DNA of 64,000 nt from an uncultured Chloroflexia bacterium (GCA_963712745.1 CAVQJC010000017.1:64001-128000); one strand, 5' to 3'; counted from the first letter of the stretch, positions 789 to 25,189 are shown. Made by a program: numbers and translations. Notes: a model not told the origin generated them from the letters alone.

Positions 789-1241
789 CGAGGGCGGTTT
801 CGCCGGTCCGAGGGGACATGACGGCCGTGACACCGCTGCCTCTACTGGATCTCCGGGCCGCCGTAGGAAGTGGAAGCTCCCCCCGGGCTTGCAGCAACGT
901 GGAAGAAGAAGGTCTTCGGCGGAGCGTCCCCCGGGACGACTTGACCCGGGGGACGAGCTACAAGGCTTGACCTTCCCCTGCATCTCGGTGAAGACCTCGT
1001 TCATGCGTGCTTGGCTTCGGCGTCGTGGCGGAGGTGTTCGCCCGCCAGCTGGGCCTCGACCCCGGTCGACGTCGAGCTGGCTTCGGGAGCGGCTGGCTAG
1101 GAGGATGGTGTGAAATAGCCCGTCCACGCGCTTGCGCTACCGGCTGCAAGCGTCGAGTACCCCCGCGCAAGGCCCGTAGCTGCGTGGTCACCCTCGAAGT
1201 GGTCCGTGGCGCCCATCTCAACGCCCTGTGATGCCCCCGCC

Positions 1242-1485
1242 TCAGCGCCGCCGCTGGCTCAACCCCTTGCGCGCGTTGCAGCTCGGGCCGAGCACGCCGG
1301 GCTGGGTGGGCAGCGGCTCACCACCGAGGACGAGCGGCACCGGATGGTCGGCCGCGAGCTCGCCGGGCCGCACCGGATGGGGCGGGTGGTGCCGCCCGGG
1401 GACGTCCAGCCGTGGACCGCGACGTGCGCCTCGACCGTCCGCTTCGCAGGACGTCGCCAGGCGGACGTCCGTCGCACGGCACCAT
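1242..1485 (-). pseudogene. HNH endonuclease, copy A (frameshifted; first Cys of CxxC changed to Gly)
   Basis: Reads ..ELAADHPVPLVLGGEPLPTQPGVLGPSCNARKGLSQRRR*; WRRPAKRTVEAHVAVHGWT lies in another frame; near-identical to copies at 5220, 8862 and 9976. Confidence 0.8.
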
Positions 1486-1489
1486 CACC

Positions 1490-1760
1490 GGCTGCACCGT
1501 GGCTGCGCCCGGCACCACCACCCCCTGGGGTGACGGCCAGCAGATCCGCGACCGGGTCGAGGAGTGCACCTTCGTGGAGGGCCCGGAGTCGGGCTGGGCC
1601 TTCGGTGACCCGCGACTCGCGGGGACGAGCACGAACCGCATCGACATCGACATCACCTCCGGTATGGAGGGGATGTTCGATCTGCTCCATGCGCCCTGGG
1701 CCGTGCGCTGGGGGACCATGGAGATCGCAGGGCCGGATGGGGCCTGGGTCGGTCCATGGG
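1490..1760 (+). pseudogene. Orphan fragment resembling the extracytoplasmic domain of the anti-sigma-like proteins
   Basis: GDPRLAG...WGTMEIAGPDGAWVGPW resembles SDDRLDG/ENDEGAW (4234 ORF) and NDPRMGG/ANDGGTW (57416 ORF); no start codon or N-terminus. Confidence 0.5.
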
Positions 1761-1761
1761 T

Positions 1762-2201
1762 CGCGCCGGTTCTTCCAAGACAGCGACGGGGTGCGCGAGA
1801 TCATCGCCGCCAACGAGGGTGCCGTCGGCCCGGAGTTCCAGTTCATCCCTGCCGACTACACGGACCCCTTGCCGCTCGAAGCCGAGAGTTACGATCTGCT
1901 GCTGTCACTCTACGCCGGCCCGGTGTCGCGGTAGTGCACGGGTTATCTCCGCATCGGGGGGATGCTGCTGGCGAACCCCAGCCATGGCGACGTGGCCCTC
2001 GCGTCGGTCGATCCTCACTACGAGCTCACCGGCGTCATCAGTTACCTGCATGGTGGATACCGCTATACGAGCGGTGAGCTCGAGACCTACCTGGTCCCGA
2101 GGATGCTGGTCGAGGACATCGCCGAGCTGGTCGAACGCACGGGCCGTGGCATCGCGTACACGAGGTCCCCGTTCGCCTACCTCTTCCGTCGCGTGCGCTG
2201 A
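1762..2201 (+). pseudogene. Class I SAM-methyltransferase-like protein, 5'-truncated with internal TAG at 1932
   Basis: ADYTDPLPLEAESYDLLLSLYAGPVSR*CTGYLRIGGMLLANPSHGD continues in frame across the stop. Confidence 0.65.
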
Positions 2202-2367
2202 CCGAGCCACCCCGATGGACATCGCGCCACGCCGGCGCCCCGTCGCGCCCGTGCGCGAGGTGGGCATGTTGCGGTGCCAGCGACCTTCGGAGCAGCCCAG
2301 CCGCAAGGATCGACGCCCGGTGCCCCTCGGCGCGAAAGGGGCTCCAGCGCTCTGTGGCGGCCCTGTC

Positions 2368-3408
2368 TCAGGGGCCGGTCTCGCCAGGCACTGCCAGCTG
2401 GGCCAGGGTCCCGATGAGCCGGGCCGTGACGAAGGGGCTGCCACGCCGCGTGCTGCGCCGCTCGAATGCCGGCATATCAGGCGGGGGGAAGGACGCGCGC
2501 AGCGGCCACGACCCATCGGGTGATTGGGTCCTCGCGAGGCGCTCGATGGCCGGCTGCACGCGCTCGTCCGCGAGGCCCGGCATAGCCACCAGGTCGAGGA
2601 CCTCAAGGAGGTCCGTGTGCCAGTCGAGCGGGAAGGCGGGCTCGAGCCACCGTTCCGCCTGGGCACGTGTGCCGCCGAGGGACATGACCGTCCCGTCGCG
2701 GCGATACAGCAGTCGACGCTCGAGGAACACCTCGCGGACCGCGTCGAGCATCTCGGTGGCTCGCTGGTCGGCTGACCGCTCGAGCCAGCGGCGGAGAGCG
2801 TGGCCGACCTTGACCAGGCCGATGAGGCAGGTGGTACCGGCCATGCACCCGCCGTAGCGGGTACGCAGCCGCTCGTCCCACAGCACCGTCGCCTCATGCC
2901 GCCGTGACCGGCCTCCGGCCCGCACCTCCTGGTGGCGCAGGATCCACTCGACCTGGGGCTCGGCGAGGTCGGCACGTCCCCCGCGCAGGTACGTCTCCCC
3001 CGCGATGCCCACGTAGCAGCTGAGCACGCCGCCATCGCTGCCATCGACCGAGAAGACCCCCGCGCCGGTATGAGCTCGATCGGCAAGGAAGCCGGCACCG
3101 GCGCGCCAGCCATCATCGCCGTCGTCGATCCCGAGCTCAGCCAGCAACTTGACCACCCAGAGCGTCGGGAGGATGCGCGACCGGGCCTCGGGAGGCTGGC
3201 CCCAGCTGCCATCGGGACGCTGGCGTGCGAACGCTTCCTCGACGGTGGCCGAACCGACGACGCGCGCCCACGCGCTGGCGATGTCCTCGGGTCCGCCACC
3301 GTCGAGTCGCGCGACGAGGAGCGCGGTGCGTGGGTCGGGGTGCTCGCGCAGCCACGTGCGTGCGGCTTCGAGCCGTGGCCAGGTCATGCCTCCCATGTCC
3401 GGCATCAT
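2368..3408 (-). CDS. Prenyltransferase/squalene-oxidase repeat protein
   Basis: QW-like repeats RQRPDGSW and TQSPDGSW; FPLDWHTDLLEVL; start codon uncertain (3408 or 3387). Confidence 0.7.
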   Translation of the reverse strand: MMPDMGGMTWPRLEAARTWLREHPDPRTALLVARLDGGGPEDIASAWARVVGSATVEEAFARQRPDGSWGQPPEARSRILPTLWVVKLLAELGIDDGDDGWRAGAGFLADRAHTGAGVFSVDGSDGGVLSCYVGIAGETYLRGGRADLAEPQVEWILRHQEVRAGGRSRRHEATVLWDERLRTRYGGCMAGTTCLIGLVKVGHALRRWLERSADQRATEMLDAVREVFLERRLLYRRDGTVMSLGGTRAQAERWLEPAFPLDWHTDLLEVLDLVAMPGLADERVQPAIERLARTQSPDGSWPLRASFPPPDMPAFERRSTRRGSPFVTARLIGTLAQLAVPGETGP

Positions 3409-3467
3409 CGGTCCCCCCTGCAGCTCGCGTGACCGAGTTTCGCCGATATTGACCAGAATCGGGAATT

Positions 3468-3531
3468 CTCGGCCGCGTGCGTAACACGCTACGGGGTCCC
3501 CGGGCGCCCACGTCAGCGCCATGTGGGTACC
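3468..3531. repeat. Dispersed ~65-bp cos-like element, copy 1
   Basis: The 34 bp ccccgggcgcccacgtcagcgccatgtgggtacc (3498-3531) are identical to 22970-23003, with a similar ctcggccgcg..cacgct.cggggt flank; the cos-like reading is inference. Confidence 0.75.
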
Positions 3532-3676
3532 CTGGGTCAGCGCCCATTGCGAAGCCCAGGCCAGCGCCCGCGTCAGCGCCAGCCGGGTTGTCGACGAAAT
3601 CGGAAGGAACGGCTGGGCACTCTGCACCGTAGTGTATGAAGGCGCCCACCAAGGCGGCGCCACCAGCGGAGTCAGA

Positions 3677-4237
3677 GTGGACACCGACCTCGTCCGCAGT
3701 GCGATGCGGGGGGACGAGCGGGCCTTCACCGAGATCGTGAACAGCGTGGCCGACCGCTTCCTCGGCGTGGCCCACCGCATCCTGCGGGACGTCGCGCTGG
3801 CCGAAGACGCGGTCCAGCAGACCCTGCTCAGCGCATGGCGAGACCTGCCTGACCTTCGCGATCCGGCGAGCTTCGACGGCTGGGCCTACCGCATCCTGGT
3901 CCACGCCTGCTACATGGAGGCACGCAAGCGCAAGCGCTGGCATCCAGCGACGATCGTCCGGTCGATCGCGGAGCCGGCCGCCCCGGACCTCATCGGCGGC
4001 ATCATCGAACGGGAGCGATTGGAGCGGGCCTTCGAGCGTCTGTCGGTCGATCACCGCGCGGTGCTGGTCCTCACCTACTACCTGGACCTGCCATCCGAGC
4101 AGGTCGCCCAAGCCCTCGACGTCCCGGTCGGGACGGTCCACTCCCGGCTCCACCGAGCCCAGCAGGCGCTCCGTGGTGCCCTCGAGGCGGACGGGCGTGT
4201 GCTACCGGCAACACCCACGACACAGGCGATCGAATGA
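3677..4237 (+). CDS. ECF-family RNA polymerase sigma factor
   Basis: GDERAF, AEDAVQQT..AWRDL, FDGWAYRI, region 4 VPVGTVHSRLHRA; GGAG before GTG. Confidence 0.92.
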   Translation: MDTDLVRSAMRGDERAFTEIVNSVADRFLGVAHRILRDVALAEDAVQQTLLSAWRDLPDLRDPASFDGWAYRILVHACYMEARKRKRWHPATIVRSIAEPAAPDLIGGIIERERLERAFERLSVDHRAVLVLTYYLDLPSEQVAQALDVPVGTVHSRLHRAQQALRGALEADGRVLPATPTTQAIE

Positions 4238-5067
4238 ATGACCAGCACATGACCGACAAGGAGATGGACGCGGTGCTGCGGACGTGGACGCCTGACGCGC
4301 CCACCGGGCATCCCGACCGCAGCCGCGTCGTCGGCAACGTCGTTCGCCAGCTTCACTCGACACGCCGACGCCGACGCCGCTGGTGGCTGACCGTGGCGTT
4401 CCGAGGAATGGCCGGCGCCCCCAAGGACGCCGAGAGGCATCACGACCCAGCCAGTCCCGTCCCGGCCACGGGCGGCCACACCCCCACCGTCATCGGGAGG
4501 ACCCAGTCCATGCTCAGCCCAGTCAAGGCCATCACCGCTGGTGCTCTCGTCTTCGCCATCGGAGGCGTGATGCTCATCGCCCAGCCATTCGACCGACCGT
4601 CGGTCGTCCCCGGCGCTGCTACTGACGACTCGCCCGCCGCTCCGGTGGCCGTGACCGCCACCAGCTACGCGGGGGGCTGCCCGGGCGTCGAGACGACCGA
4701 GACCATCGGCATCATCGAGCGCACCACCGGTGGCTACTGCAACCCCACGTGGGACTGGAGCGATGACCGGCTCGACGGCAAGGTGACCTGGGCGTCGAAC
4801 AGCGACGTCTACACCGACGGAAGCGGCCTGACCATCGAGATGCTCGCCCTGAGCTTCGAGAACGACGAGGGTGCCTGGCGCATGCGCCCGCTGCCATTCC
4901 TCGGGTTTCCGGATGCCCTGGAGACCGGCCCCGACGTCTGGATCCTGGACGGTGAGAGCGCCTACGAGGGGCTCACCGCCGTCCTCGTGGTCGACGGCTA
5001 CACTCCCCACGGCTTCATCATCGACAGCGATCTGCCGCCCGTGCCGGATAACGCCTCTACGAAGTAG
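4234..5067 (+). CDS. Putative membrane-anchored anti-sigma factor
   Basis: ATGA overlap with the ECF gene; short cytoplasmic N-terminus, RRRRWW, one TM (AITAGALVFAIGGVMLIA) and an acidic extracellular domain; paralog at 57416. Confidence 0.7.
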   Translation: MNDQHMTDKEMDAVLRTWTPDAPTGHPDRSRVVGNVVRQLHSTRRRRRRWWLTVAFRGMAGAPKDAERHHDPASPVPATGGHTPTVIGRTQSMLSPVKAITAGALVFAIGGVMLIAQPFDRPSVVPGAATDDSPAAPVAVTATSYAGGCPGVETTETIGIIERTTGGYCNPTWDWSDDRLDGKVTWASNSDVYTDGSGLTIEMLALSFENDEGAWRMRPLPFLGFPDALETGPDVWILDGESAYEGLTAVLVVDGYTPHGFIIDSDLPPVPDNASTK

Positions 5068-5111
5068 CGCCTGATCGACCTTCGGGCCCCGCCCTGCCAC
5101 GGTCGACTGCG

Positions 5112-5137
5112 AGGCCCGTCCCGCGAGGGGCGGGCCT
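5112..5137 (+). terminator. Repeated GC hairpin AGGCCCGTCCC-N4-GGGGCGGGCCT, copy 1
   Basis: 11-bp stem with a G-U wobble and GCGA loop, 45 nt after a stop codon, followed by CTT. Confidence 0.65.
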
Positions 5138-5219
5138 CTTCCCTGCCTGACGTGATTCCGAGGAGGCTCGGCGCTCCACCGGGGCTCCACCGTAGACGAG
5201 CCACATGAGTTCCTTCGCC

Positions 5220-5501
5220 TCAGCGCCGCCGCTGGCTCAACCCCTTCCGCGCGTTGCAGCTCGAGCAGAGCACGCCCGGCCGAGCCGGCAGCGGCTCGCC
5301 ACCGAGGACGAGCGGCAGCGGATGGTCGGCCGTGGGCTCGCCGGGTCGCACCGGATGGGGCTCCCGATGCCAGCCAGGACAGGTCCAGCCCTCGCGCGCG
5401 ACATGAGCCTCGACCGTCCGCTTCGCCAGACGACGCCAAGCTCTCGTGCGTCGGATCGGATGGTCGGGTGTCCGCCGGAAGCGGTTGGCGAAGCCCGGCA
5501 C
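5220..5501 (-). CDS. Small HNH endonuclease, copy B (apparently intact, 93 aa)
   Basis: GTG start with GGAG 5 nt upstream; WRRLAKR..WTCPGW..ADHPLPLVLGG..LCSSCNARKG. Confidence 0.75.
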   Translation of the reverse strand: MPGFANRFRRTPDHPIRRTRAWRRLAKRTVEAHVAREGWTCPGWHREPHPVRPGEPTADHPLPLVLGGEPLPARPGVLCSSCNARKGLSQRRR

Positions 5502-5948
5502 CCGGACTCCGCCACGGGGGTACCGCCGGTTTCGCAGCCTCGAACTCGGCGCAGGCATCAACATGGCCGTGGCCCCGACGTGGCCCGTCAGGCTGCGGTC
5601 ACACGCGGCGCAGACGAGCAGCGTCGAGAGGGCGAACATGCGCCTCGACACCGGCCTCGATGCCGGCGCCAGCACTTGGCCCGGACGGCCGCCAACGTGT
5701 CCCAGAGCGATGCGACACCGCTGGCTCTGGAGGAGTAGCTCGCGGGCCCGCGGCATGGACGCCATCGTCGGCATCGGCGACAGACGCGGTCCACGGAGGC
5801 CGTACTTCTGCCGGCAGGACATGGCCCACTGGTTCGATGGTGGTCGGTGTGGGGTGGTTGGGTAGGCTGCGCTCCAGCCCGCCGAAGATGCGGGTGCGTA
5901 GGCCCCAGCCTGCGCCAGGACACACATCGTTTCGCATGGGGTAGCTCG

Positions 5949-8111
5949 ATGACCGGCACTGCGGCCGCGCAGGAGGCGCAAGAGGGGCTGTTCGAGCGTC
6001 GTGGCCGCGAAGTCGTGTTCGTGCCGCTTAACGGCAACCAAGTGCGGCTGCTGATTACGAGCGCGGCCATCCTCTTCGTCGAGCTGTTGCTCATCCGCTG
6101 GATCACGGCCAACGTCGTCTTCGTCGGCTTCTTCAGCAACTTCCTGCTGATGGCCAGCTTCCTGGGCATCGGGTTGGGCATCCTGCGCGGCCGCAACGGG
6201 CGTCGCGTCCCCATCCTCCCGTTCGCCATCCTCTTGCTCATCGTGGTCCAGCTGGTCTACGGCGCGCAGCTGAATGTCCAGATCCGCTCCAGCGACGAGA
6301 TCTTCTTCGGCCTCGCGGAGAACGACTCCGCCGACGTGAACTTCCTGACCCTGCCGATGCTGGTGGTGCTGGTGACTCTCCTGCTGGCGGCGCTCGCCCT
6401 GCCCTTGGGGCCGCTCCTCCGGTCGATGCCGCCACTGCAGGCCTACGCCACCGACATCGCTGGATCGCTCATCGGTATCGCGCTGTTCGTCCTCCTCAGC
6501 GCCTCGGGGACCGATCCGCTCATCTGGTTCGGCGTGGCCGTCGTGCTCGTCGTGCTCATGGAGCTGGGAAGTGGCTTCAACATCTGGAGTGCTCCGAGCG
6601 TCGTCGCCCTTGGCTTGGTGCTCTTCTTCGTGAACGGGTACCTCGGCCCGGTCGATGCGCGCCACGACACCTACTCGCCGTACTACCGAGTCACCAGCGT
6701 CGTTACTCCGGACGGCACGCGCCATCTCCTGGTGAACGGCGTCCCACACCAGGCGCTGCATGCCGTCGATGGCACGACCAGGGAGCCGTTCTACGAACAG
6801 GTCTATGACTGGTTCCCCGAGCGGACGTATGACGATGTGCTGGTCATCGGTGCGGGCAGCGGTTCCGATGTGGCCCTGGCGCTGGACCGGGGTGCCCAGG
6901 CGGTCGACGCGGTGGAGATCGACCCGGTCATCCAGGCCATCGGCGTGGATGACCATCCGGACCGGCCATATGACGACCCCCGGGTCACGCGCATCGTGGC
7001 GGACGGCCGGGCGCACCTGGCCAACACCGATCGCACGTACGACCTCATCGTCTTTGCCCTGCCGGACTCGCTGACGCTGGTGAGCACCCAGGCCAACGTG
7101 CGACTCGAGTCCTTCCTCTTCACCATGCAGGCCTTCGCGGCTGCGCGCGACCACCTCTCCGATGACGGCCTGTTCGTGCTCTACAACTACTACCGCGAGC
7201 CGTGGCTGATCGAGAAGCTGGCAAACATGCTGGAGGAGTCCTTCGGCCACGAGCCCGTCGTTCGGCTCTACGAAGACACGGCCGCCGCCTTGGCGGCCGG
7301 CCCTGCCGTGGCCGCCCTCGCGGGAGGCCCGCCGCCCGGCGATGGTGTGGATGCCATCCCGGTGATAGCCGGCGCGACACCCACCCTTGCCACCGATGAC
7401 TGGCCCTTTCTGTACCTCCGTTCGCCCACGATCGCGCCCTACTACCTGGTGGCGCTGGCCATCGTCCTCGGCTTCGCCGCGCTGACCGTGACCGCTGCCG
7501 CCAAGCTCTCCGACACGTCGATCAGGCGCTTCAGCCCGCACTTCTTCGTGCTGGGCGTGGCCTTCCTCCTGCTCGAGACCCGCTCGCTGGTGAGCTTCAG
7601 CCTGCTCTTCGGCACGACCTGGCTGGTCAACGCGCTGGCGTTCTTCGGAATCCTCAGCAGCGTCCTGCTGGCCATCCTCATCAACTACCGCTTCCCCATC
7701 CGCCGGTCCTGGCCGTACTACGCGGGGCTCTTCGCTTCGCTCGCGCTGGCCTATCTCGTCCCGCCCGAGTCGCTGCTGCTGGAGCAGGCCTGGCTGCGCT
7801 ACACGCTGGCCGCGGCCCTGGCCTTTGCACCGGTATTCTTCGCCAACCTCGTGTTCACCTACTCGTTCCGTGACACGCGGTCCGCGGACATGGCCTTCGC
7901 CAGCAACCTGCTGGGCGCCATGGTCGGCGGCGCGCTGGAGTATCTGGCCCTTATCAGCGGCTACCAATCGTTGCTGCTGCTGGTAGCCGTGCTCTACGGC
8001 CTGGCCTACCTGCTCTCGAGTCGCTGGCGCACACTGGCGGACAAGGAGCTGGAAGACGAGCGCGCGTCCGATGCGCGCGCAGTGGGGGAGGTCGCCGTCG
8101 CGACCGGGTAG
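5949..8111 (+). CDS. Membrane-fused spermidine synthase-like SAM-dependent transferase
   Basis: N- and C-terminal TM bundles; VLVIGAGSGSD, AVEIDP, VADGR, YDLIVFALPDS, TDDWPF. Confidence 0.85.
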   Translation: MTGTAAAQEAQEGLFERRGREVVFVPLNGNQVRLLITSAAILFVELLLIRWITANVVFVGFFSNFLLMASFLGIGLGILRGRNGRRVPILPFAILLLIVVQLVYGAQLNVQIRSSDEIFFGLAENDSADVNFLTLPMLVVLVTLLLAALALPLGPLLRSMPPLQAYATDIAGSLIGIALFVLLSASGTDPLIWFGVAVVLVVLMELGSGFNIWSAPSVVALGLVLFFVNGYLGPVDARHDTYSPYYRVTSVVTPDGTRHLLVNGVPHQALHAVDGTTREPFYEQVYDWFPERTYDDVLVIGAGSGSDVALALDRGAQAVDAVEIDPVIQAIGVDDHPDRPYDDPRVTRIVADGRAHLANTDRTYDLIVFALPDSLTLVSTQANVRLESFLFTMQAFAAARDHLSDDGLFVLYNYYREPWLIEKLANMLEESFGHEPVVRLYEDTAAALAAGPAVAALAGGPPPGDGVDAIPVIAGATPTLATDDWPFLYLRSPTIAPYYLVALAIVLGFAALTVTAAAKLSDTSIRRFSPHFFVLGVAFLLLETRSLVSFSLLFGTTWLVNALAFFGILSSVLLAILINYRFPIRRSWPYYAGLFASLALAYLVPPESLLLEQAWLRYTLAAALAFAPVFFANLVFTYSFRDTRSADMAFASNLLGAMVGGALEYLALISGYQSLLLLVAVLYGLAYLLSSRWRTLADKELEDERASDARAVGEVAVATG

Positions 8112-8329
8112 CGCGCGGCCGGCGCGTTTCCCTAGTAGGGCAACTCGTCGACCGCCTGCTGGTGCTGCTCGACCGACCGGCCCGCATCAAATATGGCAGC
8201 CAGATGGACTTCGCGCGAGCGTACCCGGAGGGTGTCGGCTACTCGCTTGGTGTTGACGAGGCGCCCTGATGCTTACCATGCGTTGTCGGCAACGAACGAC
8301 CTCCCCATCGGGATCGTCCCGGAGCTCGA

Positions 8330-8490
8330 ATGGATGACGGCGTCGAGTTCCTCATCCGCGGATCGCTCATCGGCCTGGCCGGTGCGGCCCTCATGGATAT
8401 CTGTGGCCTCCTGCTCCGACGCGGCTTCGGCGCGCCGACCCTCGACTACGCGCTGCTGGGGCGCTGGGTCGGACACTTCCCCAAGGTCGT
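8330..8490 (+). pseudogene. DUF2938-like membrane protein, N-terminal fragment
   Basis: LIGLAGAALMDI..LLRRGFG..TLDYALLGRWVGH, then an abrupt break. Confidence 0.65.
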
Positions 8491-8499
8491 TTCTTCCAT

Positions 8500-8742
8500 G
8501 ACCGCGGGAACGACATCCATGACAACAGCATCGGCGTGACCGTCAGCGGAGCGTCGCCCATCCTTGAGGGCAACACCAGCGGGTCGAACCAGGTGGGCCT
8601 TGAGGTCTCGGGTGCCACCTCGGACCTGGCGCTCTCCGGCAACGTCATCTGCGACAACGAGACCAACGTGAACCTCGTCTGCGGCGCCGAGCTGTCCGAC
8701 ACGACCGGCAACGAGATCTGCGAGGACACACCCGCTGAGTAG
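8500..8742 (+). pseudogene. Right-handed beta-helix (NosD-like) C-terminal fragment
   Basis: GNDIHDNSIGVTVSGASPILEGN..LSGNVICDN..GNEICEDTPAE*; no N-terminus. Confidence 0.6.
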
Positions 8743-8861
8743 TCCTCCGCCGATGGCAGGCCTTGGGGCCGTGACGATCCGGAACCGGCTCGCCCGGGTC
8801 GACCTCGTGTCGGCTCGGGCATTGCCGCTCGAGCGTGTGGAGGCACGAGGCCATCACGTCA

Positions 8862-9203
8862 TCATCGCCGCGTTTGACTCGGCCCCTTGCGGGCGTTGCA
8901 GCTCGCGCAGGGCACGCCGGGTCTCGCCGACAGCGGCTCGCCACCGAGGGCCAGCGGCACCGGATGGTCGGCGGCCAGCTCGCCCTGTCGCACCGCGTGG
9001 GACTCGCGATGCCAGCCCGGACACGTCCAGCCGTGGACTGCGACATGCGCTTCGACCGTCCGCCTCGCCAGCCGGCGCCAGACGCTGGTGCGTCGCACCG
9101 GATGGTCGGGCGTCCGCCGGAAGCGGTTGGCCAAGCCGGGTCGACCGCAGCGCCGTGGCCCCACAGGCTCGGCGTTGACCTGGCCCGGCCGCAGGTCCAA
9201 CAT
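8862..9203 (-). CDS. Small HNH endonuclease, copy C (open frame)
   Basis: ANRFRRTPDHPVRRTSVWRRLARR..WTCPGW..ADHPVPLALGG..CASCNARKG; start codon uncertain. Confidence 0.7.
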   Translation of the reverse strand: MLDLRPGQVNAEPVGPRRCGRPGLANRFRRTPDHPVRRTSVWRRLARRTVEAHVAVHGWTCPGWHRESHAVRQGELAADHPVPLALGGEPLSARPGVPCASCNARKGPSQTRR

Positions 9204-9250
9204 GGCCCGATTCCACTGTCAGGATCGCTTTGGAGGAGCGCCCGAGATCG

Positions 9251-9934
9251 ATGGACCGGAACGATCCCGCCTACGGCGGCCAGCGCGAGTACAGCCCGCT
9301 CTTCCTCAAGATCTATGACCCGGTGATCCTGGGCTTCTTCACGCGGGTCATGTGGCGCTGCCCGGCCAGCCGACTGGTCGAGCGATACCAGCGATATGCC
9401 CGCCCTCCGCACCTCGACGTGGGGCCGGGCACTGGCTACTTCCTCGAACGAGCGGGTCTGCCGGAGGGCAGCCCGGTCACGATCCTCGACCCGAACCGAA
9501 ACGTCCTCGACCACGCATCCCGGCGGCTGCGGCGACTGGACCTCACGGCCGTGGAGGCCGATGTCCTGAAGCCGCTGCCACTCGACGGGCCGTTCGACTC
9601 CGCCGCCTTGAACGGCGTGATCCATTGCCTGCCAGGACCGCTCTCTCGGAAGGCCGATGCCGTGGCCAACGTGGCGGCCGTACTGGCACCGACTGGTGTC
9701 CTCTTCGGGGCATCGATCCTCGGCACCTCGGGGCAGCACACCTGGTTGTCCCGCAGCGCCCTCAAGTCCAACAACCGGCGAGGCGTCTTCGACAACCTCG
9801 ACGACACCGAAGAGGGGTTGGCCGAGGTCCTCGGGCAGTCGTTCGGACACGTGGAGCTGGAGATCATCGGCGCGATGGCGGTCTTCGCGGCGACGGATCC
9901 GAGCGGCCACTCGACGAGAGTCGCGACACCATAG
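9251..9934 (+). CDS. Class I SAM-dependent methyltransferase
   Basis: HLDVGPGTG motif I, ILDPN, FDSAALN..HCLPG. Confidence 0.88.
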   Translation: MDRNDPAYGGQREYSPLFLKIYDPVILGFFTRVMWRCPASRLVERYQRYARPPHLDVGPGTGYFLERAGLPEGSPVTILDPNRNVLDHASRRLRRLDLTAVEADVLKPLPLDGPFDSAALNGVIHCLPGPLSRKADAVANVAAVLAPTGVLFGASILGTSGQHTWLSRSALKSNNRRGVFDNLDDTEEGLAEVLGQSFGHVELEIIGAMAVFAATDPSGHSTRVATP

Positions 9935-9975
9935 CGACGCCCGATCCGCTCGCCGTCATTGCGTTCGCCTTCGCC

Positions 9976-10128
9976 TCACCGTCGCCGCTGACTCAGGCCC
10001 TTGCGCGTGTTGCAGCTCGGGCAGAGCACTCCGGGCCGTGCGGACAACGGCTCACCACCGAGGACGAGCGGCACCGGATGGTCGGGCATGCACCGGAAGC
10101 GGTTGGCGAAGCCGGGTCGACCGCAGCG
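9976..10128 (-). pseudogene. HNH endonuclease, copy D, with an in-frame internal deletion
   Basis: PGFANRFRCMPDHPVPLVLGG..LCPSCNTRKGLSQRRR*; the segment between the two DHP-coding repeats is missing. Confidence 0.8.
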
Positions 10129-10194
10129 GTCGCAGCGACGCTCGTTCGTCGTGGGCCAGCCGCACGTGCATCGTCCGGTGGTCGCGGGCCTGCC

Positions 10195-15026: not shown

Positions 15027-15278
15027 ATGATGGAAGTCACCGCACGGCTCAGCTCCAAAGGCCAGGTCACGGTCCCCCGCGCGGTCCGCGACGCGCTCTC
15101 CCTGGAGGAAGGGGACCGCCTCGTGTTCCGGGTGGAAGGCGACCATGCCGTCCTGGCCCGGACGCCGGACCTCTTGGCGCTCGCAGGATCGGTGAGCGTG
15201 CCGGCCGCGAAGCGGGGCACGCCCTGGGATGAGGTGCTGCGGCAGACGCGCCGAGCTCGCGCAGCCGGGCGACGGTGA
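15027..15278 (+). CDS. AbrB/MazE/SpoVT family antitoxin
   Basis: RLSSKGQVTVPRAVRDALSLEEGDRL. Confidence 0.88.
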   Translation: MMEVTARLSSKGQVTVPRAVRDALSLEEGDRLVFRVEGDHAVLARTPDLLALAGSVSVPAAKRGTPWDEVLRQTRRARAAGRR

Positions 15279-15670
15279 CCGCCTTCGTCGATGCCAACAT
15301 CCTCATCCGCCACCTGACCGGGGACCCACCCGAGCAGGCTGCGCGCGCGACGCGCTACCTGCGTGCCGCCGACGAGCTGCTGCTGCCCGATCTCATCCTC
15401 GCCGAGGTCGCCTACGTCCTGGAGTCGTTCTACGAGACGCCGCGGGCGCAGGTGGCAGCCACGCTCCGAGCGGTGCTGGCGTTCCCGGCCATCCGGGTCA
15501 TCGATCGGGATCTCCTGCAGCGTGCCATCGAGGTCTATGACCTCCTCCGACTCGACTTCGCGGATGCCTATCTCGTCGCGAGCGCCGAACGGACGGGGAT
15601 CGGAGTCGTCGCCTCGTTCGATCGTGGCATCGATCGCGCCGTCACCGTCCGCCGCGAGGAGCCCGGCTGA
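15275..15670 (+). CDS. vapC: PIN-domain (VapC) toxin
   Basis: FVDANIL, E..YVL, DFADA, SFDR; GTGA overlap with the antitoxin. Confidence 0.88.
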   Translation: MTAFVDANILIRHLTGDPPEQAARATRYLRAADELLLPDLILAEVAYVLESFYETPRAQVAATLRAVLAFPAIRVIDRDLLQRAIEVYDLLRLDFADAYLVASAERTGIGVVASFDRGIDRAVTVRREEPG

Positions 15671-15689
15671 ATGGCCTGGGGTCGAGTTC

Positions 15690-15730
15690 GAGCCAGAGCC
15701 CGCCAAGGGATCGAGCACCGCCTCACCCGG
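15690..15730 (-). pseudogene. DNA methyltransferase motif-I remnant, copy 1
   Basis: PGEAVLDPLAGSGS; 23 bp (15708-15730) identical to 24941-24963. Confidence 0.55.
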
Positions 15731-15769
15731 CAGGGTCGCGCTTCGACTCGACGGCACCGCCGACGACCG

Positions 15770-16760: not shown

Positions 16761-16809
16761 AGGTCGACCTCCGGATCGCAGCATCGTCGGATGACCGGGA
16801 AGCGGCAGG

Positions 16810-17149: not shown

Positions 17150-17386
17150 GCGCCCGAGCCGCTCTTCGTCCTCGGAGAGGTCGACGTACAGGACGGGGAC
17201 CAATGGTTCGCCGCGGCTGATCGCGAGGGCCACCCTGAGGTGGCCGTCGACGACGTGCCCGGTGCGCTGGTTGACGAGCACGTTCTGGACCCAGCCGACC
17301 TGGTCAAGGACCCCGGCCAGTGCCTCCTGCTGGGCCTTCGGATGGACGCGGCAGTTGGCCGGGCTGGCGAGCAGCCGGTCGGGCAA
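17150..17386 (-). pseudogene. ParB-like N-terminal domain remnant (phage ParB-methylase type)
   Basis: PDRLLASPAN.RVHPKAQQEAL..GWVQNVLVNQRTGHVVDGHLRV..VPVLYVDLSEDEE. Confidence 0.75.
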
Positions 17387-18111: not shown

Positions 18112-19500
18112 TCAAGCCTCGTCCTCCAGGCCCATGGCCTCGTCGGTGATGACCGCCGGGTCCAGGTCGGGATCGAGATCGTTGGCCTTCGCGGCCGCCA
18201 GCGCACCCTCGCCGCCCAGCTCGGCGATGCGGGCCTCCACCTTCCGGATGACGAACGAGAGGTGCGTACGCAGCTGGTAGAGCGTGCCCATCTTGCCCGC
18301 CGGCATACGCCGCTGCCGGGCCAGCTGACCGTCGAGGCCGACGAGGAAGTCCTGCTGTTCCATCAGCTCCTCGAGGCTGGACTCCCCCAGGTTGCGCTCG
18401 ATGGCATTGATGCGCGGATACCACGAGTTGACGCGGCTGTTGTTGAACCACTCCCAGCCGGCCTTGGCCAGGGTGTAGACCGGGAACGCGAGCACGAGCA
18501 ACGGCAGCAGGATGAGGTAGACCCGCGACAGGGGCGAGGCGATCTCGAAGGGCAGGAACGACTCCAGCGGTGTCGGCCCCTCCTCGAGGTACTTCCTGGC
18601 GTCCTCGTCGACCGGGAACTGCGTCTGGCTCAGCGAGGGGAAGGCGTCGAGATCGCCGACGTAGGGGACCGGCAGGACCCCCGGTAGCTCACGCACGATG
18701 AGCCGGGCCAGGTCGGGGTTCAGGCCGTCGCGACCCATGAGCGTGGCTCGGGCGGCCAGCATGGCCATGTCCTGGGGTGGCACCGGGGACGCGCCCGGAT
18801 CGTAGACGCCGCGGAAGAGCGTCACCGGCGAGAGGAACGGCAGCCGGCGCGAAAGCCCTTCCGTGTTCGGGACGGGCAGGAGCTCGAGATCGGGGATGGC
18901 CGCAAGCTCCGCTACGAGCGGCGCATTGGCGGCCACCACGAAGAAGGCGGCGTCGATGGTCCCCTCCGCCAGGCCCGCGATGGCCTCGTCGGTGGTCCAC
19001 TCCAGGGCGATGGCCGTCGAGTCGGTCTGGTCGATGAGGGCCCGGGCGGTCGCGTTCGTGCCGCTGCCGGCGGGACCGATGGCCAGGCGTTTGCCGGCCA
19101 GGATGGGGATGCCATCCACGACCTCGATGGCACCCTCCCGCGCGAAGATCCAGAAGGGTTCGTAGAACACCTCTGACAGCGCGGTCGAGCCGCCGATGTC
19201 GGTCAGGAACTCGGTGCCGCTCTGGATGAGTCCGACGTCCGCGTCGCCCGTGCGCAGCAGCTCGGCGTTCTCGATGGAGCCGGCGGTCTCGAGGACCTCG
19301 ACCGTGATGCCCTCGGTCGCCAGGACCTCCTGCAGCGAGGCGGCGAAGGCTGCGTACATGCCGCCCGGCTGACCCGCCGCGAGCGTGAACGTCTTGGGCG
19401 GGCGCCCGAGCAGCACGACCGCCACCATGGCCGCGAGCAGCGCCACGATGACCCCGAGCACGAGGGATACCACCACTTTGCGGCCGAGACCGTCTCTCAT
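18112..19500 (-). CDS. TAXI-family TRAP solute-binding protein, membrane-anchored form
   Basis: LAAGQPGGMY, ETAGSIEN, DVGLIQSG, FYEP, IGPAGSGT; N- and C-terminal TM segments. Confidence 0.85.
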   Translation of the reverse strand: MRDGLGRKVVVSLVLGVIVALLAAMVAVVLLGRPPKTFTLAAGQPGGMYAAFAASLQEVLATEGITVEVLETAGSIENAELLRTGDADVGLIQSGTEFLTDIGGSTALSEVFYEPFWIFAREGAIEVVDGIPILAGKRLAIGPAGSGTNATARALIDQTDSTAIALEWTTDEAIAGLAEGTIDAAFFVVAANAPLVAELAAIPDLELLPVPNTEGLSRRLPFLSPVTLFRGVYDPGASPVPPQDMAMLAARATLMGRDGLNPDLARLIVRELPGVLPVPYVGDLDAFPSLSQTQFPVDEDARKYLEEGPTPLESFLPFEIASPLSRVYLILLPLLVLAFPVYTLAKAGWEWFNNSRVNSWYPRINAIERNLGESSLEELMEQQDFLVGLDGQLARQRRMPAGKMGTLYQLRTHLSFVIRKVEARIAELGGEGALAAAKANDLDPDLDPAVITDEAMGLEDEA

Positions 19501-19849: not shown

Positions 19850-20480
19850 CCGCCGTGGCAGGGTTTCACCTTCTGGCCGCTGCCGCACGGTCAGAGGTCA
19901 TTGCGCCCGGCCGACGCGACGGCCAGGCCGAGGTCCGCGTCGAACTGCGCCAGCATGAGCATCACCTCGGAGGCCTGGCGGCCGGCCTTGAGCAGCCCCA
20001 CGATGGCCTTCGCGGGGCGCTCGATGTGGCGGAGGAATGCCATGCAGCCCGCGCACAGGTAGTTGAGGCCGGGCTCGCCGTCTCGGGTCACCAGGAAGCG
20101 GTTCTTCGGGCATTCGCCGTGGCAGGCGAAGCCGACATCGTACTCGCGGCACATGCGGGGCAAGGTGTCGCGCTTGGCCGCCCCGAACGACTGTTGCTGA
20201 TCCGAGCCGACCAGGTCGAGCATCGGCAGCTCCCGGATGTTGCCCAGCCGATGCTCGGGCTCGACGAGGTGATCGCAGGAGTACAGGTCGCCGATGTGCT
20301 CGAGGCAGGCCCGCGCCACAGGTGGCGTCGAAGACGCAGAGTCCCGAGCCGGGGGCCCCGTAGAAGTTGCGCAGCGTGGCCTCGAACGTCTGGACGAAGA
20401 CCCGGCCGACGTCGTTGCGGACCCAGTCGACGAAGATGGTGCTGAGGAAGCGCATGAAGCGCGAGAAGTAGGGCACGACG
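19850..20480 (-). pseudogene. Anaerobic sulfatase maturase C-terminal fragment (SPASM + SEC-C)
   Basis: FLSTIFVDWVRNDVGRVFVQTFE, GDLYSCDH, ACHGECPKNRF, NYLCAG, GRNDL*PCGSGQKVKPCHG; frameshifted and lacking the radical SAM core. Confidence 0.8.
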
Positions 20481-21966: not shown

Positions 21967-22540
21967 ATGACAGGGGGAGTGTCTTCGATGACTCGACATC
22001 GGGTGGGTGCTCCGTCGAAGCACCATGCTGGCCGCCTGGCCACCGTCATGGTCTTCGTGGCCGCGATCGTGGCGAGCCCTGGAGCGCTGGCTCAGTCACC
22101 CTCGCCATCCCTCGCGCCTGCGGCGAGCGCCTCCCCGGCCACGACATTCGACGTCTTCGCCGGCAGCCCCACCACGACCGTCTCGCTCGGGCTCTACTCC
22201 GGCTTGCCCGACCCGTCCTGGGAGCTGTCCGACGAGGAAGCGTCGGCCCTCACCGCGCTCCTCGAGTCGCTGCCCCGCGTGGACGGCCCAGCGCCATCGG
22301 GTGGTCTCGGCTATCACGGCTTCACGATCGAGCGGCTGACGCCCGAGGGCATGCCGCGCCTGCTGCTGGCGTTCGAGGGTACGGTCTCCGACCCGCTCTC
22401 GAGCCATCTCTCCTACCTCGATGATCCCGGACGGTCGGTCGAGCGTTTCCTCCTCGACAGCGGGCGCGACTGGCTGTCGGCCGTCGAGATCGATGGCGCC
22501 CGGACTCGATCCCGGGCCGACGTCGTCTGCGGGTTCGTAG
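21967..22540 (+). CDS. Secreted hypothetical protein (probable +1 frameshift near 22492)
   Basis: Signal peptide ..ALAQSPSP; LYSGLPDPSWEL, GLGYHGF; removing one base gives EIMAPGLDPGPTSSAGS*. Confidence 0.6.
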
Positions 22541-22579
22541 CCGGCGGCGAGGCAGCGCTGACTCGCTGGGTCGCCCGGA

Positions 22580-22889
22580 ACCGCGGGAGACCTGGGCCGG
22601 ACCGCGCCCGCCAGCGTCTCGTCCGCGAGCGGCAGCGCTCGCCGCACACGATGGCCTGCCGACGCCGGCCGTCGAGCGGGACGCCGCAGCCCGGGCAGAC
22701 GCGTCCGGCGGGCCGGCGGCCGATGGCGCTGCGGTGGGCCTCGCACCAGACCCGGGGGCGGCCACGGCCGGGTCGGGCCTCGAGCTCGGCACCGCACGCG
22801 CGGCAACGGCGCCGTGGCGTGACCAGTGCCCGCAGCTGCGCCGTGCCCATCCGGGCCAGGGCCTCGAGCTCATCCATCACGATCATCAT
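22580..22889 (-). pseudogene. Phage-type Zn-finger protein (3' end uncertain)
   Basis: CRACG..GRGRPRVWCEAH..CPGCG..AIVCGERCR, directly downstream (minus strand) of cos-like copy 2. Confidence 0.6.
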
Positions 22890-22938
22890 CCCATCGGGCG
22901 ACCGGGTGTCCGCATCAATACGGCGTAATCAGGCGAAA

Positions 22939-23003
22939 CTCGGCCGCGCGTGCACCACGCTCCGGGGTCCCCCGGGCGCCCACGTCAGCGCCATGTGGGT
23001 ACC
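22939..23003. repeat. Dispersed cos-like element, copy 2
   Basis: 34 bp identical to 3498-3531, same orientation. Confidence 0.75.
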
Positions 23004-23186
23004 GGTGGTCCACCGCCCGGCCCAACGCCACGCCCAACGCCCCGTCCTGGCCTGCCTGGGGAGCGCGCAACGGGGCTTCGTTGTAGTAGTCTCCCGCTCT
23101 GTCTAGACCGACCCAGCAGGGTCGTCGCGCAGCTCGACGGCGCCGCATCCCGTTGGCGCCGCAGGACGGGGGGATAGGAGGAAGCG

Positions 23187-23837
23187 TTGTCCCGTTCCCG
23201 CACCCTGGCCCTCGTCGGCGCAGCCGCCCTGCTGCTCGTGTCCGCCGCGCCCATCGTGGCCCAGGACGAGGCCACCACCGATGACAGCATGGACATGGAG
23301 GGCCTGACCCTCGATGTCGGCGGCGTCGAGTACGCCTTCACGAACCTACCGACGAGCGTGCCCGCGGGCACGTCCCTGACCTTCACCAACAACGGTGCCG
23401 AGGTCCACGAGATGGTCGTCGTGCGCATCGCTGACGGCGTCACCGAGAGCCTCGAGGAGATCCTGGCCATGGAGGCCGAGGGTCGTGACCCGATGGCCGA
23501 GGGCCTGGTCGAGATCGTGGGGGACATGCCGCTCTTCGCGGCACCGGGGACCACCGCCGAGGGCACCCGGACGCTCGAGAGCGAGGGACGCTACGTCGTC
23601 CTCTGCTTCATCCCCCAGGGCCTCACGGACATGTCGGTCCTCGAGCAGCTCGGTCCAGACGCGAACCCCGAGGATATGCCGCCCGAGGTCCAGGCGATCA
23701 TGGCCAACCCGCCGCACCTGGCGCTGGGCATGATCCAGGAGTTCACCGTCACCCCGGCGGGGACCGAGGTCGGCCCGCTGCCGGAGGCTGCTTCCGACGG
23801 GATGGCACCCGAGGACGAGGAGGCGGCGTCGAAGTAG
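23187..23837 (+). CDS. Secreted cupredoxin-like protein
   Basis: AGGAGG RBS with TTG start; signal peptide; EYAF, NNGAEVHEM, GRYVVLCFIP..PPHLALGM. Confidence 0.75.
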   Translation: MSRSRTLALVGAAALLLVSAAPIVAQDEATTDDSMDMEGLTLDVGGVEYAFTNLPTSVPAGTSLTFTNNGAEVHEMVVVRIADGVTESLEEILAMEAEGRDPMAEGLVEIVGDMPLFAAPGTTAEGTRTLESEGRYVVLCFIPQGLTDMSVLEQLGPDANPEDMPPEVQAIMANPPHLALGMIQEFTVTPAGTEVGPLPEAASDGMAPEDEEAASK

Positions 23838-23840
23838 TCG

Positions 23841-24040
23841 CCGATCACCACGGATACGCTGGAGCGCTCGCTGGAGAAAGTCCGCAGACGGACCAAGGTC
23901 ATCGGCCAGTTCCCCGGTGAGAGCAGTCGCCTGACGATGGCCTGGGCCGTCATGGACCTCGTCATCGCCGGCGCCAAGGGACTCGGGCTGACCATGCCGG
24001 AGCGCCATGCCATCGCTGTCATCGTCGCTGACCGGGCAGC
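23841..24040 (+). mobile_element. IS256-family transposase C-terminal fragment
   Basis: TTDTLERSLEKVRRRTKVIGQFPGESSRLTMAWAV matches the IS256 TNxLERxxxEIRRRT..FP motif. Confidence 0.75.
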
Positions 24041-24093
24041 CCCGAGCGTCGGTCTTCCCTGATGTGGACACACTGGCGTGCTATTGTGTGCAC

Positions 24094-24354
24094 ATGGCTG
24101 AGGTCGGGATCCGCGAACTGAAGCAGCGTCTGTCCGAGTACCTGGACCGAGCAGAGCGAGGTGAAGTCGTGCAGGTCACCCACCGTGGCCGCCCAAAGGC
24201 GATGCTCGGTCCGGTGCCTGGCCGCGCGCGCGTCGAGGAGGGTATCCGCAGTGGATGGATCACCCCGGGTACCGGCTCGCCGCTTGGTCCTGTGCATCGA
24301 GCGAAGGCGTCCAGGCGCGTGCTCGACGTGCTGGCCGGGGATCGCGGTGAGTGA
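24094..24354 (+). CDS. Phd/YefM family antitoxin
   Basis: VGIRELKQRLSEYLDRAERGEVVQVTHRGRP; operator-like tgtggacac/tgtgtgcaca sequences just upstream. Confidence 0.88.
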   Translation: MAEVGIRELKQRLSEYLDRAERGEVVQVTHRGRPKAMLGPVPGRARVEEGIRSGWITPGTGSPLGPVHRAKASRRVLDVLAGDRGE

Positions 24355-24755
24355 GTACCTACGTCGATTCGAGCGCCTTGCTCAAGCGCTACGTGGACGA
24401 GGCCGACTCGGCCGACGCTGATGCCCTGCTGCAGGCCGACGGTGCGCTCCTGACGGCCCGACACACGATCGTGGAGGTGCGCCGCAACCTCGCTCGCCTG
24501 CTCTCCGGGCGCGATCTCGTCGCCGCGCGAGCCGCATTCGCGGACGACCTGCGCTCCATCTCGATCATCGAGCTCGACGAGGCGACCTGCGATTCGGCTG
24601 CGTTGATCGCGGAGTCCACCGGCGCGCGCACGCTCGATGCGCTCCATCTCGCGGCCGCACAACGGGTCTCCGCGCCAGGGGTCGGCTTCCTGACGTTCGA
24701 CCTTCGCCAGGCACAGGCAGCCCGCGCGATCGGTCTCACCGTCGTGACCGCCTGA
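24351..24755 (+). CDS. vapC: PIN-domain (VapC) toxin
   Basis: YVDSSALLKRY..E, RTLDALHLAAA, TFDLRQ. Confidence 0.9.
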   Translation: MSTYVDSSALLKRYVDEADSADADALLQADGALLTARHTIVEVRRNLARLLSGRDLVAARAAFADDLRSISIIELDEATCDSAALIAESTGARTLDALHLAAAQRVSAPGVGFLTFDLRQAQAARAIGLTVVTA

Positions 24756-24924
24756 TCGGACACGCAGGTGGCGTGATCGGGTCGGGACCCGCAGGCACCG
24801 TGGGCCAACGATGGCGGGGCAGGGGCTCGAGACCGTCGAGGTGGCTCGGGCGGGTCTCGTCGCGACACAGCTTCGCGGCGTCGGGCGCACGGGCCGTCCC
24901 CGCCGATCCGCGCGGCGCTTCCCG

Positions 24925-24964
24925 CCCCGAGCCTGCGAAAGGATCGAGCACCGCCTCACCCGGG
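24925..24964 (-). pseudogene. DNA methyltransferase motif-I remnant, copy 2
   Basis: PGEAVLDPFAGSG. Confidence 0.6.
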
Positions 24965-25189
24965 AGCGAGCTGTAGCCTCGGACCAGCCGGGGGCATCGG
25001 CTTCCGGCGTCGGGTGGATGGTCACCGGCTTCACTCGCGGCAGCTCGACCTTCTCGATCAGCGCCTCCGATGTCGCCCCAAGGGCGGACCCAGACGAAAC
25101 GCCTGCGCCCACATCTCTAGCGACCGCTACTCTCGGCGAGTCAGGCTCGCACCCGCACCGGGCGAGCCGGCCACCAGCCAACCTAGCCC

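Follow-up and report, generated by a model that had tools for sequence, protein, structure and literature searches.

Co-oriented remnants of a phage packaging-like module recur through a plasticity zone in the genome of an uncultured Chloroflexota lineage

Variable genomic islands are known to expand as mobile elements arrive again and again and then decay, in most cases at tRNA genes and leaving remains of integrases. Among the phage genes relevant here, gp74 of HK97 encodes a packaging-associated HNH endonuclease of a cos phage. An HNH gene beside the packaging genes is described for Skunavirus (PMC12967558). For the tycheposon islands of Prochlorococcus, a preprint (bioRxiv 10.1101/2020.12.28.424599) reports that successive arrivals push older elements inward and leave partial-tRNA scars, that pieces from the 3' end of the target gene are scattered between the cargo together with degraded genes of the elements, and that some elements are satellite-like and carry terS. 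The cos-type Staphylococcus aureus pathogenicity islands (SaPIs) and the phage-inducible chromosomal islands (PICIs) of Escherichia coli are described as redirecting helper packaging (PMC5052747, PMC6739421). The present analysis concerns a stretch of 64,000 nucleotides (the window, with positions counted from its first letter), which corresponds to positions 64001-128000 of contig C17 in a metagenome-assembled genome (MAG) of an uncultured Chloroflexota lineage (G000; 4.2 Mb in 20 contigs, 84.6% complete, 5% contamination). Its first 25 kb carry fragments of a phage packaging-like module, including truncated genes for an HNH endonuclease and a conserved intergenic repeat (IGR) of about 110 nt, between unrelated cargo genes. 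We regard this region as an accretion array, in which one temperate phage and/or satellite family was repeatedly and directionally acquired in a plasticity zone and decayed there, with local duplication in addition; a probability of roughly 0.58 is given to this explanation. The grounds are that the pieces are clustered, co-oriented, and collinear with one module, that the module is found whole in phage-like and satellite-like contigs, that the HNH genes diverged under purifying selection before they were truncated, and that relatives have similar arrays with different cargo.

For the HNH gene, a repeat search identified a unit of 163-279 nt in four direct copies of one orientation (1238-1477, 5216-5498, 8858-9140, and 9972-10134; 72-87% identity), and the minus-strand translations of these copies have one common HNH-type C-terminus. 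Together with the family profile described below, these results bear out all four HNH pieces named in the original prediction. Because the GC content is high (64-73%), spurious open reading frames (ORFs) are abundant (27 kb contain 190 with 60 aa or more). Genes were called with a codon-usage model trained on long ORFs, and Pfam was run on every stop-to-stop frame of 70 aa or more in window 1-27000 (244 frames), on 94 called genes from C17:1-64 kb and C20:26-46 kb, and on 31 genes from window 26.9-64 kb. Single HNH fragments are borderline in this search; two of the four frames reach HNH or HNH_5 with E 7e-4 to 7e-3, below the curated cut-offs, and the full-length G000 gene alone also remains below (16.7 vs. 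27.5 bits). Among 16 aligned full-length relatives, D92, H93, N116, C112, and C115 are invariant, 15 members match HNH_5 (best E 2.8e-6), and four match HNH (best E 9.9e-9). The profile of this alignment matches the HNH endonuclease structures 4h9d (E 2.8e-4) and 5h0m (E 0.014, nearly full length), the latter being presumably the HNH protein of Geobacillus phage GVE2. Judged by sequence, the gene is a member of the HNH endonuclease superfamily (Pfam HNH / HNH_5). The full-length product has 126 aa with an extra Cys-rich N-terminal region; PHROGs contain no match for it, and its Pfam matches are weak only.

The source module has the order lysin-like gene, HNH gene, IGR, Zn-ribbon ORF, small reverse ORF, a gene for a fusion of ParB-N and a DNA methyltransferase (ParB/MTase), and the genes for the small and large terminase subunits (TerS and TerL). 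In contig C5 of the same-genus genome G056, a contiguous module consists of a 69-aa ORF, the lysin-like gene, a full HNH gene (90% identical), a 0.7-kb cargo gene, a 70-nt copy of the HNH tail, the IGR, the small reverse ORF, ParB/MTase, TerS, and TerL residues 1-211. Every G000 remnant maps collinearly and in one orientation onto this module. The lysin-like protein has 382 aa and a weak PHROG holin-like C-terminus (E 1.4e-7), with no IMG/VR relative by pattern scan and no Pfam family. Homologs of the full-length HNH protein were found at 60-63% identity in IMG/VR and JGI metagenome contigs. The IMG/VR contig L025 contains tail genes, another HNH gene, two ORFs, the HNH homolog (62%), two small reverse ORFs, ParB-N/MTase (phrog_498), TerS, TerL, portal, and major capsid (head) protein. 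The metagenome contig L087 has the HNH gene, a weak IGR-profile match (E 5e-4) right after the HNH stop codon, a small reverse ORF, ParB/MTase, TerS, and a full TerL. Another metagenome contig, L088 (875-15161), has an integrase, HTH_17, DUF3987, N6-MTase, HNH, ParB/MTase, TerS, and a full TerL; the genes past TerL are on the other strand, and tblastn found no portal match. L088 may be a satellite-like element, possibly a phage satellite with its own terminase, given that we take integrase, HTH_17, and DUF3987 to be satellite hallmark genes.

In L025, L026, L027, L087, and L088, the HNH homolog is located about 0.1-3.3 kb upstream of the terminase genes, and by this position the gene belongs to the packaging-type HNH genes of cos phages, with a predicted activity. 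TerL has no tblastn match in G000, such that the HNH-beside-terminase arrangement is not seen there. The idea of a single packaging-like module is therefore supported both by the collinearity with G056 and by the co-occurrence of HNH, ParB/MTase, TerS, and TerL in IMG/VR and metagenome contigs. As for the intact parent element that was to be reconstructed, a contiguous module is available from G056, L025, L087, and L088. The neighborhoods of the single HNH copies in G008 and G024 were considered for an intact parent and rejected, as they contain ordinary accessory genes and insertion sequence (IS) elements only. As a separate observation, a second, unrelated HNH gene (L036 5953-6216, in G056:C5) is located between two pieces of the lysin-like gene of the module; it is 52% identical to the other HNH of L025 and appears as if inserted, like a homing-type endonuclease gene.

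The remaining module pieces in the window are short (Table 1), and all of them are on the minus strand as originally described. A 93-aa ORF at 17108-17386(-) carries the expected ParB-N domain (phrog_498, E 1.2e-13), with 64% identity to ParB/MTase of IMG/VR and 93% to the G056 copy. The fusion is represented in the window by this part and two short C-terminal motif I fragments, and no single gene encodes it. The motif I fragment adjoining TerS was confirmed, whereas the other one is weak; the latter is 88% identical over 41 nt to 24926-24966. A terminase had been stated to be invisible in the window; this was incorrect, as a TerS N-terminal fragment is present with 62-63% identity to TerS of related contigs. 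The proposed Zn-finger ORF proved to be a conserved module ORF. Some of its copies have an in-frame stop, and most Zn-ribbon ORFs in G000 are broken, like TerS and MTase. Its Protein Atlas neighbors are small, mostly viral clusters of hypothetical proteins at 0.91-0.92, which provides a lead only, and blastn found no match for it in related viral contigs. NCBIfam has no match for any module piece.

The IGR had been described as a cos-like repeat with two copies and a looser candidate at 1110-1165. The repeat search pairs window 3493-3587 with 22965-23059, and a profile built from 29 copies recovered both as repeats (Table 1); the looser candidate gave no match, with weak similarity nearby. The profile has eight strong matches in the 4.2-Mb genome, located at C17:1711, 17795, 24700, 41387, 61433, 67464, and 86933 on one strand and at C20:39361, and neighboring IGRs are spaced by 6-20 kb. 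In the alignment, a short motif is present in three direct copies together with a G/C palindrome. In G056, the IGR is located between HNH and ParB/MTase-TerS, where cos would be expected. By position and sequence features, the IGR is an unproven candidate for a cos site. A known RNA origin was rejected, with one sub-threshold, unrelated Rfam match at E<=1 in window 1-27000, and so was a tRNA origin, with no ARAGORN prediction in the window, C17:1-64 kb, C20:26-46 kb, or three related contigs. If the co-oriented IGRs worked as cos sites, by themselves or together with TerS and HNH, a helper phage could package the chromosomal cargo, and the array would be a satellite-like or transduction platform kept by selection. 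The position of the IGR between HNH and the terminase genes, which is the cos position of HNH-type cos phages, its motif copies and palindrome, the co-orientation that cos packaging requires, the same packaging genes in the satellite-like L088, and the purifying selection on full-length HNH are all compatible with this explanation. However, the exact IGR pattern has 0 matches in IMG/VR, and blastn against related viral contigs gave chance-level matches of 13-17 nt only (E 0.26). Moreover, the 6-20 kb spacing looks short for the packaging of a whole phage genome, and the broken state of TerS, MTase, and most Zn-ribbon ORFs also argues against such a platform, which we consider quite improbable.

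Table 1. Module pieces and cargo genes in the first 25 kb of the window
Feature	Position	Strand	Remarks
HNH copy 1	1242..1477	-	3' part; residues ~74-126 in frame; frameshifted upstream
HNH copy 2	5220..5498	-	5'-truncated, residues ~33-126
HNH copy 3	8862..9152	-	5'-truncated, residues ~30-126
HNH copy 4	9975..10164	-	internal deletion; residues ~16-49 joined to ~91-126
Weak IGR similarity adjoining tail of HNH copy 1	1188..1253	-	E 0.053
IGR copy	3464..3565	-	profile E 1.5e-22; degenerate HNH-tail remnant on HNH-proximal side
IGR copy	22933..23037	-	profile E 2e-21
Small reverse ORF region fragment, 65 nt	2189..2253	-	80% identity to reference module, E 9e-9
Weak DNA-MTase C-terminal (motif I) fragment	15614..15739	-	E 0.009
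ParB-N fragment of ParB/DNA-methyltransferase fusion	17156..17383	-	residues ~34-111 of ~430
Zn-ribbon ORF	22413..22889	-	first ~95 residues conserved; start ~50 nt after IGR
Junction fragment	24781..24975	-	MTase C-terminus 24925-24975 (E 1.2e-4), then TerS N-terminus 24781-24909 (E 5.7e-10)
Cargo: extracytoplasmic function (ECF) sigma factor and overlapping 277-aa ORF, putative anti-sigma	3521..5067 (sigma 3521/3632-4237)	+
Cargo: 754-aa protein, spermine-synthase-like domain	5847..8111	+
Cargo: class I S-adenosylmethionine (SAM) methyltransferase	9230..9934	+	no DNA MTase family match
Cargo: MazE-like antitoxin and PIN toxin pair	15027..15670	+
Cargo: 216-aa ORF	23187..23837	+	no known family
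Cargo: Phd/YefM antitoxin and PIN toxin pair	24088..24755	+

The array is far larger than the interval 1090-25000 to which it had been assigned. By blastn, HNH copies are located at C17:2721, 19343, 25843, 65238, 69216, 72862, and 73972, which share one strand. Of the copies with 100 nt or more, seven are on C17:2.7-74 kb and one is on C20, such that the gene is confined to two loci in 4.2 Mb. One full-length copy is at C20:36837-37214, and a 36-nt HNH tail is present at C17:17890. Further module pieces are located at C17:37790-38155, C17:58656-59305, and C20:42063-42900. The array spans at least C17:1.7-89 kb, with the contig beginning inside it, and one more locus is on C20. Window 1-25 kb thus forms the right-hand part of a plasticity zone that measures 90 kb or more and ends here. 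The comparison of the remnants with the whole genome agrees with the original prediction, as they are restricted to two loci and co-oriented rather than scattered at random.

Mis-assembly, with strains or phage contigs mixed into the chromosome bin, may be raised against these patterns, because G000 is a MAG with the incompleteness, contamination, and fragmentation given above, and repeats are hard to assemble. However, similar co-oriented arrays are present in genomes of the same genus, some of them on long contigs, and the array is continuous with ordinary chromosomal genes on the 452-kb contig C17. In addition, 20 public metagenome runs contain parts of window 1000-10500 as contigs. Contigs from four runs (four studies) match pieces of the window, and some of them span HNH/cargo junctions with 0 mismatches (e.g., window 9050-9611 and 9613-10077). 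An artifact is therefore extremely improbable. Joints within metagenome contigs (e.g., 1471 to 10075) were considered as signs of excision and rejected, as they arise where other HNH copies map in two parts.

Among relatives, HNH was searched in 41 genomes, and IGR, Zn-ribbon ORF, ParB/MTase, and TerL were searched in 49 genus genomes. HNH is present in 12 of the 41, namely, besides G000, in 11 of 24 genomes of the same genus and in none of 16 from the sister family (genomes of about 1 Mb). It forms co-oriented clusters with 17 matches in G024, nine in G021, and seven in G022. The IGR was found in 19 of the 49 genomes, on the same contigs and in matching orientation, the Zn-ribbon ORF in 14, and ParB/MTase matches in 22. 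TerL matches are present in 15, mostly as N-terminal fragments, several of which end near residue 211 and several of which are on contigs that also bear HNH or IGR arrays. A near-complete open TerL is present only in G007, and G008 has frameshifted TerL and portal genes. Some cargo is shared with relatives at 84-93% identity, and its order and neighbors differ. For example, the glyoxalase gene (window 1-791) is also found in G001, G009, and G024, the MazE/PIN pair in G009, and the bestrophin-like and phytochelatin-synthase genes in the arrays of G001 and G022. The glyoxalase gene is flanked directly by an IGR in G001 and by an IGR fragment and, later, an HNH tail in G009, and G024 and G000 share about 450 nt followed by an HNH tail. 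The expectation that cargo content and order vary while the module pieces persist is consistent with these comparisons.

The divergence of the HNH copies provides evidence on how the array formed. Among the full-length genes of seven genomes, the ratio of nonsynonymous to synonymous divergence (dN/dS) is 0.06-0.19 at dS 0.34-0.84 (21 pairs), and therefore the protein appears to be functional, judged by selection. For the G000 fragments and the C20 copy, dN/dS over common codons is 0.10-0.48 at dS 0.28-0.79 (28 pairs), and dS among the G000 fragments is in about the same range as dS between the full-length copies of the seven genomes. These values indicate that most of the divergence predates truncation and accumulated under selection, which favors separate arrival of diverged family members over copying of dead fragments. 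The HNH fragments most likely arrived separately, having diverged as working genes.

Alternatively, one ancient prophage or satellite remnant may have been duplicated in place by unequal crossing-over or segmental duplication and then decayed, with its cargo shuffled. Tandem duplication accounts for co-orientation and clustering, and recent in-situ duplicates do occur. The 216-aa ORF and its IGR (window 22921-23827 = C17:86921-87827) form a 908-nt, 98%-identical duplicate of C17:1699-2594, and a 2.9-kb block with MTase, TerS, and TerL(1-211) is duplicated in G056 with 99.2% identity. In addition, TerL ends at about residue 211 in both G056 copies, G001, and G009, which suggests an ancestor that was already truncated. 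On the other hand, copies of a dead fragment are expected to have dN/dS near 1, unlike the values found, and the C20 HNH protein is closer to copies of other species (92-94% identity to G001, G009, and G024) than to the truncated G000 copies (81-90% amino acid identity over shorter spans). Local amplification as the main process is thus unlikely.

For the accretion array, the following course is proposed. Each arrival would have entered directionally, either through a site-specific integrase, now lost, or by Campbell-type homologous recombination of a circular genome with a resident remnant. Either route would force co-orientation and duplicate exactly the shared segment, and the Campbell-type route would in addition account for the recurrence of this segment alone. 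Deletions would then remove the harmful remainder and leave truncated, packaging-proximal pieces. Accessory genes (ECF sigma pairs, toxin-antitoxin genes, SRPBCC genes, and methyltransferases) would occupy slots, most of them between HNH stop codon and IGR, and local segmental duplication would add some copies. Repeated integration in tandem at a hotspot had been proposed before; low dN/dS values support the repeated acquisition, and the tandem integration itself is conjectural, as integrase, att repeat, and tRNA are all lacking.

Several observations weigh against accretion. The array and its surroundings yielded no integrase, att repeat, or tRNA, including C17:1-64 kb beyond the left window edge, where the original prediction advised to look for an integrase, such that the mechanism of integration is hypothetical. 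Pfam detected no integrase or phage structural gene in C17:1-64 kb, C20:26-46 kb, or window 26.9-64 kb, in line with the earlier statement that capsid and integrase genes are absent. In tblastn searches of G000 with 27 proteins of related phage/satellite-like contigs, TerL, portal, major capsid protein, and tail proteins had 0 matches, and all matches were restricted to HNH, small reverse ORF, ParB-N, and TerS N-terminal fragments. The lack of structural debris suggests that the recurring unit is narrower than a prophage, because random decay of whole prophages should also leave tail, capsid, or replication debris. Furthermore, homology ends 4-5 nt past the HNH stop codon in all G000 copies while the 5' ends vary, and in some relatives it stops exactly at the ends of the HNH ORF; such sharp boundaries hint at a specific junction-forming process. 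The in-situ duplicates noted above in G000 and G056 also count here. Finally, full-length HNH is under strong purifying selection in genomes that have no complete phage seen nearby, as would be expected of a gene in continued use rather than of mere debris. The missing structural genes, the sharp HNH ends, and the selection on HNH speak against a simple graveyard of prophages and leave some room for cassette capture and for functional cos sites or a satellite.

The sharp boundaries are best considered together with the sequences next to them. Several IGR copies have an HNH tail of 19-70 nt on the HNH-proximal side, and the distance from HNH stop codon to IGR in metagenome contigs varies from about 9 nt to 5.6 kb. 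These distances and tail copies indicate that the ancestral order was HNH directly followed by IGR, with a recurrent cargo slot between them. One explanation for this slot is a cassette platform that lacks its own recombinase or is served in trans, similar to integrons or tycheposons, with the HNH 3' end and IGR as the recombination site and each insertion of cargo between HNH stop codon and IGR leaving a copy of the HNH tail. Such a platform is suggested by cargo that is bounded by the HNH 3' end and a tail copy (G056 module positions 3647-3716; C17:17890, 24719, and 61417), by the variable distance, and by the fixed 3' and variable 5' HNH ends, which resemble the partial-tRNA scars described for tycheposon islands (bioRxiv 10.1101/2020.12.28.424599). 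However, Pfam found no integrase or other recombinase in C17:1-128 kb, the duplicated tail has no fixed core, and cargo is on both strands; the integron-like alternative raised in the original prediction is likewise not supported, given the missing recombinase and the cargo on both strands. Moreover, the integrases of related contigs are several kb from HNH. Overall, a cassette platform is distinctly unlikely. With an HNH-tail copy of no fixed length and no recombinase nearby, the junction may reflect site-specific insertion, homologous exchange between module variants, or repair of a break made by a nuclease.

A more specific proposal is that the junction of HNH stop codon and IGR is an active gene-capture slot. 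The predicted HNH nuclease would nick or cut at the IGR, alone or with a helper terminase, and repair of the break would recruit foreign DNA and copy the HNH tail, thereby producing an integron-like array without a recombinase; the co-oriented packaging signals could further enable a helper phage to carry captured cargo from cell to cell. The odds are clearly against this combination of steps, and we present it as speculation. Two related ideas were rejected. Capture of linear ends by end joining does not agree with HNH copies that end 4-5 nt after the stop codon and not inside the IGR, nor with IGR copies that have no common outer edge. An integrase targeting the HNH 3' end is not supported by the IMG/VR contig L061, as its HNH region has no second copy on the contig and its integrase is about 6.5 kb from HNH. 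In the same contig, a 53-nt stretch between HNH and integrase (L061:6261-6313) is 98% identical to a piece in G000:C17:374098-376650, and about 2 kb from this stretch at C17:374 kb is a tyrosine integrase fragment with 61% identity to the L061 integrase. C17:374098-376650 may be a decayed integration site; ARAGORN predicted no tRNA at the L061 copy.

Cargo genes of the array are on both strands, whereas the module pieces are all on the minus strand. Beyond window 1-27 kb, the called genes examined with Pfam include ECF sigma factors, toxin-antitoxin pairs, SRPBCC proteins, hydrolases, and transporters. Between the 216-aa gene and the Phd/PIN pair, window 23838-24059 encodes a C-terminal fragment of a Mutator-family transposase (Pfam E 1.3e-3). 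The start of the ORF after the ECF sigma gene (window 4447-4594) recurs at C17:15179, 27185, and 31315, C20:651-660 kb, C8:19 kb, and in many relatives, and probably represents the shared N-terminal domain of a large anti-sigma paralog family. Another repeat of about 190 nt (window 10720-10909) has about 20 more copies in the genome, mostly at C5:73-110 kb with a spacing of 1.5-3 kb, and many in relatives. Its bin has by far the highest depth in metagenome contigs, and it may be a promoter/leader or a conserved gene start. The region of an NMT1-like binding-protein gene (window 18116-19500) is 99.35% identical over 1385 nt to C8:87335-88719, which represents a very recent duplication or a shared mobile segment. 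An apparently truncated gene at window 19894-20319 corresponds to the C-terminal SPASM part of a radical SAM enzyme that resembles anaerobic sulfatase maturases (NCBIfam E 6e-35, far under the cut-off), and split sulfatase genes are located at C17:11428-13804. Farther right, intergenic perfect or near-perfect tandem repeats are present at window 36155-36262 (34 nt x3) and 43803-43904 (51 nt x2), and the ORF at window 62084-62725 has a long, acidic, Asp-rich repeat at its end and DNA repeats with a period of 12-18 nt.

A full-text literature search at the level of listings found no paper on co-oriented arrays of HNH, cos, or terminase remnants, although this does not prove their absence from the literature. 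The array gives a first view of the phages and possible satellites of this lineage and shows how gene-rich variable regions can build up. Its cargo is located at a recurrent junction beside a nuclease gene that is still under selection. An active junction would represent a novel way of capturing genes that is linked to phage packaging; if it is inactive, the array is still a useful marker for plasticity zones of this Chloroflexota lineage.

Compared with the packaging HNH genes of cos phages, the gene found here is similar in being small and stand-alone, just upstream of the terminase genes and presumed cos in related contigs. It differs in its extra N-terminal Cys-rich region and in having eight copies, mostly 5'-truncated, on a chromosome without TerL or structural genes. 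Integrons likewise consist of many small cargo units parted by a recurring sequence of one orientation, but here Pfam found no IntI or other recombinase, cargo is on both strands, and fragments of phage genes form the spacers; attC was not searched for. In relation to PICIs and other satellites, L088 has the integrase, HTH_17, DUF3987, and packaging module without a portal match, whereas the G000 array has no integrase, regulator, or primase, its TerS and MTase are broken, and it has many copies in place of one island. Only TerS, MTase, HNH, and IGR fragments of a PICI-like satellite are present in G000, and the integrase, att sites, structural genes, and lysis genes of an intact prophage are missing. 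Accordingly, the G000 array is not an integron, not an intact prophage, and not a satellite. With the tycheposon islands, the array shares its probable accretion and scattered 3' gene fragments between cargo. Unlike in those islands, it has no tRNA, integrase, or integrase fragment, and therefore is not a member of the tycheposons; its scar is the 3' part of the HNH gene together with a non-coding repeat and varies in length from 36 to about 385 nt. Thus, the same outcome as in other variable islands was reached here with no recombinase in sight, and the material was the packaging end alone, which is one narrow part of the genome of a phage or satellite.

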